Assembly: GCA_964016885.1 (NCBI GenBank)
Contig: OZ024752.1
Coordinates: 35,402,001 to 35,466,000 of the forward strand
Length of the DNA stretch: 64,000 nucleotides
Direction: 5' to 3'
Origin: Eledone cirrhosa
Lineage: Eukaryota
Shown: piece by piece, positions 21,450-61,300 of the stretch
How positions within the stretch are numbered: position 1 is the first letter of the stretch
Layout: every line of letters starts with the position of its first letter
Translations under genes and position numbers: made by a program
The notes under the pieces: generated by a model
Seen by the model: only the letters and a program-made list of their open reading frames with translations
Databases searched by the model: none
What the model was told of the DNA's origin: nothing

Positions 21450-21505
<56 letters not shown>

Positions 21506-21629
21506 GTAGGAGGTGAGTTTTATTGTAGCACAATAAAGCAATGCAAATATCAGATAAGTAGCACTCTACAGTTTGTAGGACTGGAGTATAAATAATATAA
21601 GATCAAAAGAAGGTTAAAAGAGTTCCAAG

Positions 21630-21700
21630 TATTTTATTATGCGCATTTCAAAAACAAATATCAGCATGGGATGATATCTGCGTTTTCATCAGATAAAATA
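21630..21700 (-). ncRNA. Minimal type-I hammerhead ribozyme (Penelope-type)
   Basis: Reverse complement: TATTTTAT-CTGATGA-14-bp helix II-GAAA-T-GCGC-A-TA-ATAAAATA. Confidence 0.8.
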
Positions 21701-21818
21701 GGGATACGTGGTATGAAGCTTAAAAAACACTTGTGAATAGTGAAGTTTTAAATCAACATAAGTTGATTTAAAACTTCACTATTCAAAAGTGTTTTTTAAG
21801 CTTCATATCATGTATCCC

Positions 21819-21889
21819 TATTTTATCTGATGAAAACGCAGATATCATCCCATGATGATATTTGTTTTTGAAATGCGCATAATAAAATA
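21819..21889 (+). ncRNA. Minimal type-I hammerhead ribozyme (Penelope-type)
   Basis: Helix I TATTTTAT/ATAAAATA, core CTGATGA (21827) and GAAA (21870), long helix II, palindromic GCGC loop III, AUA cleavage triplet. Confidence 0.8.
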
Positions 21890-21971
21890 CTTGAAACTCT
21901 TTTAACCATCTTTTGATCTTATATTATATATATATGTGTGTGTATGTATGTATGTATGTATGTATATATTC

Positions 21972-22497: not shown

Positions 22498-22548
<51 letters not shown>

Positions 22549-22663
22549 CACATATATCTGTAGAGTCATAGATGAGGCATTGCAACCTATCATACACAGT
22601 TTATACACAAATCTGTTCAACCTTCTTGATATTACTTTTGCCTGAATGTATATATAGATACAT

Positions 22664-23091
22664 ATGGTGGCTGACAACTCGTTTTCGAGTACGGCCAGTA
22701 CTTTATATCCATGTAGGAGAACCCCTACCGATGCGCTGAACGAGTGTGTTTTAGTCCAGACAGCGACTTGAAAACTCTGGTACAAACACTACACTTGTGA
22801 CAATTACTGCTGGGCCCATGGAGATCTCCACATATAAAGCAATCTCCAGATATAAAGCAATGCCTGTGCCGTGAAATCTCCAGATATAAAGCAATGCCTG
22901 TGCCGTGAAGCTTTTATAGTGAGCAAAGGCACTGCACAAAGCCAGTCCCACTCTCTTAACCAAGATGATATTTACCAAAAAGAAGAACAAGTCAACATCA
23001 TTGGATACCATCAGGGTTGCAGGTGTTATATCAGAGTTTTCCTTCTCCTAGAATTCTGCCTTGACAAAGGCTCAGGGGTCATCTCTCCCGG
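22664..23091 (-). mobile_element. RTE-like non-autonomous retroposon, copy 3 (5'-truncated, internal duplication)
   Basis: Reverse complement of copy 2, with ATCTCCAGATATAAAGCAATGCCTGTGCCGTGAA duplicated in tandem. Confidence 0.75.
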
Positions 23092-23271
23092 ATAGATACA
23101 TATACGTACGTACATACATACATACAAACACATCTATATATATATATATATATATATTTATTAAAATAACAGTTATTTTAATAAATATTTGCTCTAGGGC
23201 TCTTATATATTTGATATGTATTTATCCTTATCGAGCCCTCTTTCGATTTTAGTCTTCAAATTTATTATTAT

Positions 23272-43453: not shown

Positions 43454-43617
43454 TATATATATATATATATATCTCATATATATATATATATCTCATATAT
43501 ATATATATATATATATCTCATATATATATATATATATATATATATCTCATATATATATATATATATATCTCATATATATATATATATATATATCTCATAT
43601 ATATATATATATATATA

Positions 43618-43652
<35 letters not shown>

Positions 43653-43817
43653 ATATATATATATATATATATATCTCATATATATATATATCTCATATAT
43701 ATATATATATATATATCTCATATATATATATATCTCATATATATACATCTCATATATATATATACATCTCATATATATATATCTCATATATATATATATC
43801 TCATATATATATATATA

Positions 43818-43858
<41 letters not shown>

Positions 43859-43940
43859 ATATATATATATCTTATATATATATATCTCATATATATATCT
43901 CATATATATCATATATATATATATCATATATATATATATA
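43245..43940. repeat. (AT)nCTC minisatellite
   Basis: Seen directly. Confidence 0.95.
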
Positions 43941-44131
43941 TAGGAAAATGTATGACCACGACGGCAGAGCTCAAATCGTTTCGACGGCTATTTCAGTCCA
44001 GAAATAGCCGTCGAAACGGCTTGAGCTCTGCCGTCGGGGTCATACATGTTCCTATTACCCACTCTATTTCCCTAAGTATTGAGTACTCTGGTGCGTTATG
44101 GTCCATCTGGTTCCTTACCACAATTCCTTTG

Positions 44132-44133
<2 letters not shown>
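43941..44133 (+). mobile_element. Fold-back family B copy (most complete hairpin)
   Basis: Arms 43941-43994 / 44001-44054, loop AGTCCA, tail CCCACTCTA...GTATTGAGTACTCTGGTGCG. Confidence 0.85.

Positions 44134-44175
<42 letters not shown>

Positions 44176-58559: not shown

Positions 58560-61300
<2,741 letters not shown>

Follow-up and report, generated by a model that had tools for sequence, protein, structure and literature searches.

The 64-kb window analysed here, i.e. the whole 64,000-nt stretch of the Eledone cirrhosa genome, contains a short hairpin at 43941-44133 that is embedded in a TA microsatellite, with (TA)n on either side. An inverted arm faces a forward arm, and the two are identical at 50 of 54 bases. 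The inverted copy reported in the original prediction is thus real, and the reading of the right arm as a hammerhead 3′ half is correct, since the 3′ strand of helix II, GAAA, helix III, GUC and the 3′ strand of helix I can all be located (Table 1). The ribozyme is of type I, and its 5′ half is absent from this copy. Throughout, position 0 is the first G after GUC (44036), i.e. the predicted cleavage site, and Y and Z denote the outer ends of the arms.

Table 1. The 43941-44133 hairpin and its relatives in the 64-kb window. Signed numbers are relative to the predicted cleavage site.
Feature	Position	Strand	Remarks
Left flank, TA-rich microsatellite target	43500..43940	.	read from 43500
Inverted (short-end) arm	43941..43994	-	runs from Y (+19, where the helix I 3′ strand stops) to an inner end at -35
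Forward (long-end) arm	43995..44133	+	A at -41, then hammerhead 3′ half, 80-nt tail, point Z
Position -41, wall of arm ends, putative capped RNA start	43995..43995	+	initiator-like TCAGTC/TTAGTC
Hammerhead helix II 3′ strand, -34 to -24	44002..44012	+	from alignment with read-through copies
GAAA (44013-44016), helix III with palindromic loop, GUC (44033-44035)	44013..44035	+	predicted cleavage after 44035
Helix I 3′ strand, terminating at Y	44036..44054	+	Y is +19
One-sided tail, Y to Z	44055..44133	+	small bulged hairpin at its start
Right flank, (TA)n target	44134..44171	.	
Diverged relative with different helix II	38330..38510	+	forward arm starts at -41 (38376)
Same-family copy	39165..39330	+	turn at -19/-25, short of the wall
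Same-family copy, CTGG subfamily	40326..40501	+	arm ends at -38 and -40; internal deletion in forward arm
Lone Y-ended arm	60115..60180	+	start near -44; no tail, no inverted partner

Relatives of the hairpin are found in the window at 3762, 31778, 38330, 39165, 40326 and 60115. Those at 38330, 39165, 40326 and 60115 had been described as turning in or next to helix II. All four exist, but only 39165 turns in helix II/GAAA, and 60115 is a lone arm with a short end, for which the inverted match is no longer than about 6 bases. The turn of the 43941 copy had likewise been placed in helix II; its forward arm in fact starts at -41, inside loop II, as does that of the diverged 38330 copy. What had been taken for the 5′ strand of helix II is the inverted arm and not a strand of the element's own, and the word GGAACCAGTAAG, thought to be private to the 40326 copy, marks a subfamily with 7,065 exact short-end matches.

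Several other repeats are present in the window. Further fold-back families in (TA)n, at 21504-21924 and 39695-40085, carry a complete CTGATGA hammerhead-like motif in both arms, and the fold-backs at 38541-38730, 39408-39611 and 31169-31498 have the whole motif in the long arm and none in the short arm. A fold-back of ~300 bp at 6683-7017 has no CTGANGA on either strand. Another repeat occurs in TA-rich DNA in three copies (4055-4645, 5041-5480 and 22547-23134), of which two form a tandem and the third is in reverse orientation; by eye, one end of the repeat holds a short reading frame of C2H2-like type.

A 32-nt word from the tail has 35,401 exact matches in the genome (3 Gb, large contigs), and its reversed control has none. 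Copies that read through the turn lead to a long 3′ region and a single ORF. Where copies carry the ORF, their tail continues through a twin hairpin to the ORF start, giving the partial tandems known as pLTRs. The ORF encodes a predicted PLE-type reverse transcriptase (RT) with a C-terminal GIY-YIG-like endonuclease, and its motifs, read in loci L178, L182 and L172, include RWR, SDKTGN, YRDD, FLDV, a CxCx5C linker (CNCPDRSSC), and CxxC and CxH (CNLC, CKH) around the endonuclease E and N. Of 7,992 entries scored, 791 are homologues of the protein at E<=0.001, with ~40-53% identity for the best; a Pfam search of two ORF fragments returned no match. In the available text of PMC8557442, Hydra-clade elements are characterised by RWK, DKT, the CxCx5C linker, CxxC and CxH flanking E and N, and insertion into (TA)n, and an inverted 5′-truncated copy with a one-sided tail is given as standard for Penelope-like elements (PLEs). 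Both the (TA)n insertion and this architecture are seen here. Judged by sequence, the 43941 hairpin represents a Penelope-like retroelement of the Hydra clade (RT plus C-terminal endonuclease) in the form of a short insertion, and the element would be a new family of a known clade, its architecture of inverted arm, one-sided tail and tandems being already known for PLEs. Short back-to-back insertions of this Penelope-type element number tens of thousands.

Other identities were considered and rejected. Hydra-1_Obim, as far as its available description goes, is listed with a ribozyme of CUGAAGA core and other stems, and its protein is clearly diverged as compared by eye. A non-LTR retrozyme would consist of tandem units with a whole hammerhead; the short copies here are single head-to-head pairs with half a ribozyme. 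A MITE would have fixed terminal inverted repeats and identical interiors, and here the ends are asymmetric, the junctions vary from copy to copy and the sequence is continuous with an RT ORF. The expectation that these copies are no MITE but the end of a hammerhead-bearing retroelement is therefore upheld.

To characterise the missing half of the ribozyme, read-through copies were collected with a 21-place pattern (1,500 matches, of which the first 100 were counted by hand). Their 5′ core is TTGANAA in 68, CTGAGAA in 25, CTGANGA in 1 and other in 6, and position 7 of the 68 TTGANAA copies is A in 33, T in 19, C in 13 and G in 3. The original prediction was right that the 5′ half is absent from the short copies; the core it named, CUGAUGA, was wrong, since the element mostly has UUGANAA. 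Taken literally, its refuting test, the absence of any CTGANGA 5′ half, would nearly count against it, for the wrong reason. Most of the read-through copies thus possess a hammerhead core by way of a U3-A8 variant, the 43941 copy lacks the 5′ half, and only in read-through copies is the element's own helix II 5′ strand visible. Such a core is described for Schistosoma PLEs in the accessible part of PMC4209133. Helix pairing is kept in 94% of cells, with no compensatory change among 10 close sequences. Some copies fold by energy into a hammerhead junction, and in the predicted folds loop II contains a distal stem whose 3′ strand is -44 to -37; an Rfam scan of the 64-kb window returned no match. 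In 26 of 28 listed copies C3 of the core is accompanied by G at position 7, and U3 copies vary at that position, which perhaps reflects a shifted C-G pair.

The outer ends of the arms are fixed: with few exceptions among inverted copies, Y (+19) terminates the inverted arm and Z (+99) the forward arm, whether the insertion is short or kilobases long. An insertion has one arm of each kind: a script count over 30 Y-ended arms gives a Z partner for 26 and a Y partner within 1.5 kb for none, and Z-Z pairs are rare (L020, L087 and L271). A twin bulged hairpin lies 4-6 nt past each outer end (two of three copies fold in this way). As described in the available text of PMC11167929, the protein of an anole PLE (PAc) nicks and extends both target strands, and two RNA start sites bound the tail.

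The inner ends were determined in a young subfamily (89 copies) and in a general sample (97 copies, taken in genome order); these samples omit ten of the first 100 places in the 5,560-tail subfamily list and about six in the 35,401-match list. In the young subfamily, 99 of 145 arm ends lie at -45 to -35 (23 at -41 and 17 at -40), none lies at -46 to -100, 14 lie in the helix II 3′ strand (-34 to -24), and 7 are at 0, one of them a miscall. In the general sample, 53 forward arms stop at -48 to -35, three stop in the helix II strand and 11 read through; of 58 arms, 49 stop at their first pass of this wall. It should be noted that the script's end calls overlook internal deletions (e.g. L189, L273 and L293), and that about half of the 20 general-set rows scored as having no left arm do have an inverted one, a tolerant count being 77 of 97. 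That turning points cluster tightly had been anticipated. Since they cluster at -45 to -35, with few in helix II, synthesis appears to pass helices I, III and II and to end in loop II.

Positions -41 and -45 are both an A within an initiator-like word; no downstream promoter element was seen by eye. A splice site at -40/-35 (TTTAG, CCAG) was rejected as the cause of the wall because no common upstream exon is joined there. Two loci, L185 (= L068) and L213, would be consistent with the enzyme jumping templates at the end of the RNA: immediately upstream of the tail word, their arms extend to -41 or -40 and pass from there into remote parts of the element (3′ region, ORF).

An untemplated base is found at the wall. 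All ten references have T or C as the templated base at -42. Where arms start at -41 beside (TA)n, a G directly precedes them in 17 of 100 cases (first 100 of 749), as compared with 2-3 of 100 control arms starting at -38 (first 100 of 222; both hand counts, Fisher p=0.0015); G-bearing arms are thus a minority of those at -41, many of which are templated or ambiguous. In hairpins with both arms reaching -41 (first 50 of 2,013, counted by hand), the base read inward past -41 is A in 65 (templated), C in 21, G in 11 and T in 3, an excess of untemplated C over T with p=0.0003, and 6 of the 21 extra C are single-base inserts common to the partner arm. The extra C occurs on both arms in 6 of the 50 hairpins, one of which has nothing between its arms. 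In the available text of PMC11702581, an extra G is the mark of capped full-length L1 5′ ends. A stop at a lariat branch, also considered, would leave the extra G unexplained.

A second wall coincides with the cleavage site. Among hairpins that turn near it (first 50 of 183), almost all stop exactly at 0 and only 4 of 100 arms pass -3. The base added there is A in 26, T in 11 and C in 7, which differs from the C added at -41 (p=0.002). Such hairpins make up about 3% of the subfamily (5,560 tails). Because this sharp wall falls exactly at the GUC cleavage site, cleaved RNA has probably also been copied into the genome. We had predicted that the CTCG subfamily, whose intact copies have the mismatched core CTGAGAA (C3 opposite A8), would lose this wall; the prediction failed, as the wall is present in 102 of its hairpins. 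Cleavage in this subfamily would need a register shift (the shifted C3-G pair), cleavage in trans, or another cause.

How the two arms arise can be judged from their junctions. The original prediction, which is close to the proposal of Arkhipova et al. 2013, was that a single cDNA, having terminated at the stem of the ribozyme, snaps back on itself and is copied by self-priming. Self-priming is indeed put forward in the available text of that paper (PMC3846280), turns do cluster beside helix II, palindromic junctions exist, and the arms are almost always of one subfamily, their variable block being identical in 87 of 105 hairpins. Folding back predicts this last feature, and a shared subfamily also fits one RNA or one source in general, so that it does not separate a self-primed cDNA from two cDNAs. 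Against self-priming, the ends lie past the stem rather than at its base, with only 14/145 and 3/97 in the helix II 3′ strand. Moreover, it requires that all of the inverted arm be present in the tail arm. Of 65 young-subfamily hairpins, 25 have the longer arm on the inverted side and 25 the shorter, and of 66 in the general set 35 and 22, respectively (some miscalls), a pattern that cannot result from copying of the first cDNA. In L254, L266, L277 and L287 the tail arm is devoid of ribozyme and the inverted arms extend to between -36 and -45, two of them bearing an extra C of their own: in L266 and L277 the Y arm extends to -41 with this cap-like base, opposite a Z arm without any ribozyme. 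Single hairpins could have become lopsided by deletions after insertion. Junctions with no loop are common, 35 of 65 being blunt or with a 1-base overlap. Nor does self-priming account for a fixed stop at Y, which has a twin hairpin of its own, and a few hairpins have arms with marks of different subfamilies (L271, L122 and L100), implying two RNAs or later conversion. We consider a self-primed origin, already largely refuted by these features, to be very unlikely. The many arm mismatches seen at a CATG site in the first sample were an ascertainment effect of the query and faded in unbiased sets. At some junctions (L275, L244, L257, L273 and L281) the inserts are repeated copies of nearby arm sequence, which resemble products of polymerase-theta-type end joining.

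Two other explanations were considered. The short hairpins might come from an element that is non-autonomous but is transcribed and copied again in its own right (SINE- or MITE-like), or they might be long palindromes that deletions later shortened. Some junctions do recur (about one in four of 50 hairpins is centred on AAATTT), and internal deletions at a GCCGTCG repeat occur. Yet one near-identical subfamily contains dozens of distinct junctions, which bears out the earlier claim that the inversion forms anew in each insertion; the ends are asymmetric, the copies are continuous with ORF-bearing ones, and random deletion would not give two sharp walls. Recopying or trimming is thus extremely improbable. 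The remaining alternative accepts two cDNAs from Y and Z, and attributes the wall to a stall that is encountered only just after initiation; loop II in its folded state, a bound protein or an RNA end that resists decay would cause it, and the extra base would come from the enzyme itself. The position of the wall in the distal stem of the predicted loop II folds would agree with a stall, as would the spread of ends across -45 to -35. In addition, ORF-bearing copies pass the site: of those reaching the upstream repeat, drawn from 30 loci chosen by likeness to one subfamily, 13 of 14 keep the whole ribozyme and read through -41, and only L182 starts at the wall (-45). On the other side, the added base is C at -41 and mostly A at the cleavage-site wall, no ends lie just beyond -45, and the identical -41 A is the start in the relative whose helix II differs. 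We regard a stall as unlikely.

Taken together, these data make it likely, in our judgement, that the arms are two separate cDNAs from one capped RNA. Both cut (TA)n target ends would prime on the RNA at fixed sites, one at Y and one at Z; each cDNA would run off the capped 5′ end of the RNA at -41 to -45, and the two would then be end-joined head to head. The wall would correspond to a transcription start inside hammerhead loop II, with the consequence that the RNA 5′ end carries only half a ribozyme, and the extra G would be the copied cap. Shorter inner ends (-40 to -35 and below) may result from trimming during end-joining, and the ~3% of copies ending at 0 may have been copied from self-cleaved RNA. 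An observation against this origin of the arms is that 13/14 ORF-bearing copies pass -41, as opposed to the 49/58 arms that stop at first pass. A single capped linear RNA cannot give both, so the long copies must derive from a second, read-through or circular, RNA; they are seamless and would arise by priming at the downstream repeat of such an RNA. The available portion of PMC4209133 proposes a circle model for tandems. Loss of the ribozyme, which had been proposed to be an inactivation on integration, would be a by-product of this process, the 5′ half having probably never been in the template RNA; the ribozyme is not generally lost by folding back, since CUGAUGA ribozymes remain complete, in one arm or in both, in other fold-back families of the window.

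We hold a more detailed version of double priming as a possibility somewhat short of probable. Priming would occur from two hairpin-marked sites on one RNA with a capped start in loop II; the 5′ copy would be a substrate half-ribozyme and the downstream copy would be able to cleave. The -41 hairpins would then derive from capped RNA and those at position 0 from cleaved RNA, with religated circles as the source of the seamless partial tandems. If this is true, the genome records all three RNA forms of the cycle, including the in vivo activity of a U3-A8 ribozyme.

PLEs are the closest retroelement relatives of telomerase. The present results bear on how they make the inverted arm, the tail and the tandems, and on the role of the hammerhead; the published reading of the inverted arm is self-priming. 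The tens of thousands of copies yield base-precise predictions against that reading, i.e. an RNA start at -41/-45, cleavage at 0, and priming at +19 and +99. In the literature searched, mostly papers open without subscription, we found none that ties PLE inverted arms to two cDNAs or to a cap mark.

Several known systems share parts of this organisation, and they are compared here as far as the available texts describe them. The Hydra clade of C-terminal EN+ PLEs (Craig et al. 2021, PMC8557442) has RWK-like, DKT and CxCx5C motifs, (TA)n targeting, a pLTR hammerhead, partial tandems, an inverted 5′-truncated copy and a one-sided tail. The tail is 30-40 nt there and 80 nt here, and the core here is U3-A8. 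The Schistosoma Cercyon PLE hammerheads (Cervera and de la Pena 2014, PMC4209133) have the U3-A8 core, a long helix II, a palindromic loop III, ribozyme pairs on opposite strands and the circle model in common with our element, which differs in its helix III of 4-5 bp, its loop II of about 40 nt and the presence of the 3′ half only in most copies. In Penelope of Drosophila virilis (Schostak et al. 2008, PMC2377424) transcription also starts inside the pLTR. That start lies upstream of the ribozyme, as it precedes by 46 nt an intron that ends in helix I, whereas the start proposed here would lie inside loop II.

Priming on both target ends has its closest parallel in the PAc Poseidon element of Anolis, studied in vitro (Frangieh et al. 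2024, PMC11167929), in which both target strands are nicked and extended and two internal starts bound the tail. The accessible text of that study does not tie the two starts to an inverted arm and reports that no reads ended at the cleavage site, whereas genomic copies here end exactly at it. In L1 twin priming (PMC11702581), too, the second target end primes on the RNA and an extra G marks the capped 5′ end; the L1 cDNAs cover different stretches of the RNA, whereas those proposed here overlap fully and have a fixed second start. Finally, the inverted Penelope pLTRs of Adineta vaga (Arkhipova et al. 2013, PMC3846280) resemble the present copies in their head-to-head arrangement, optional tail, junction palindromes and an initiator-like motif in the pLTR. 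They are read in the available text as self-priming, perhaps on an antisense template, whereas the junctions described here favour two cDNAs from a capped sense RNA.
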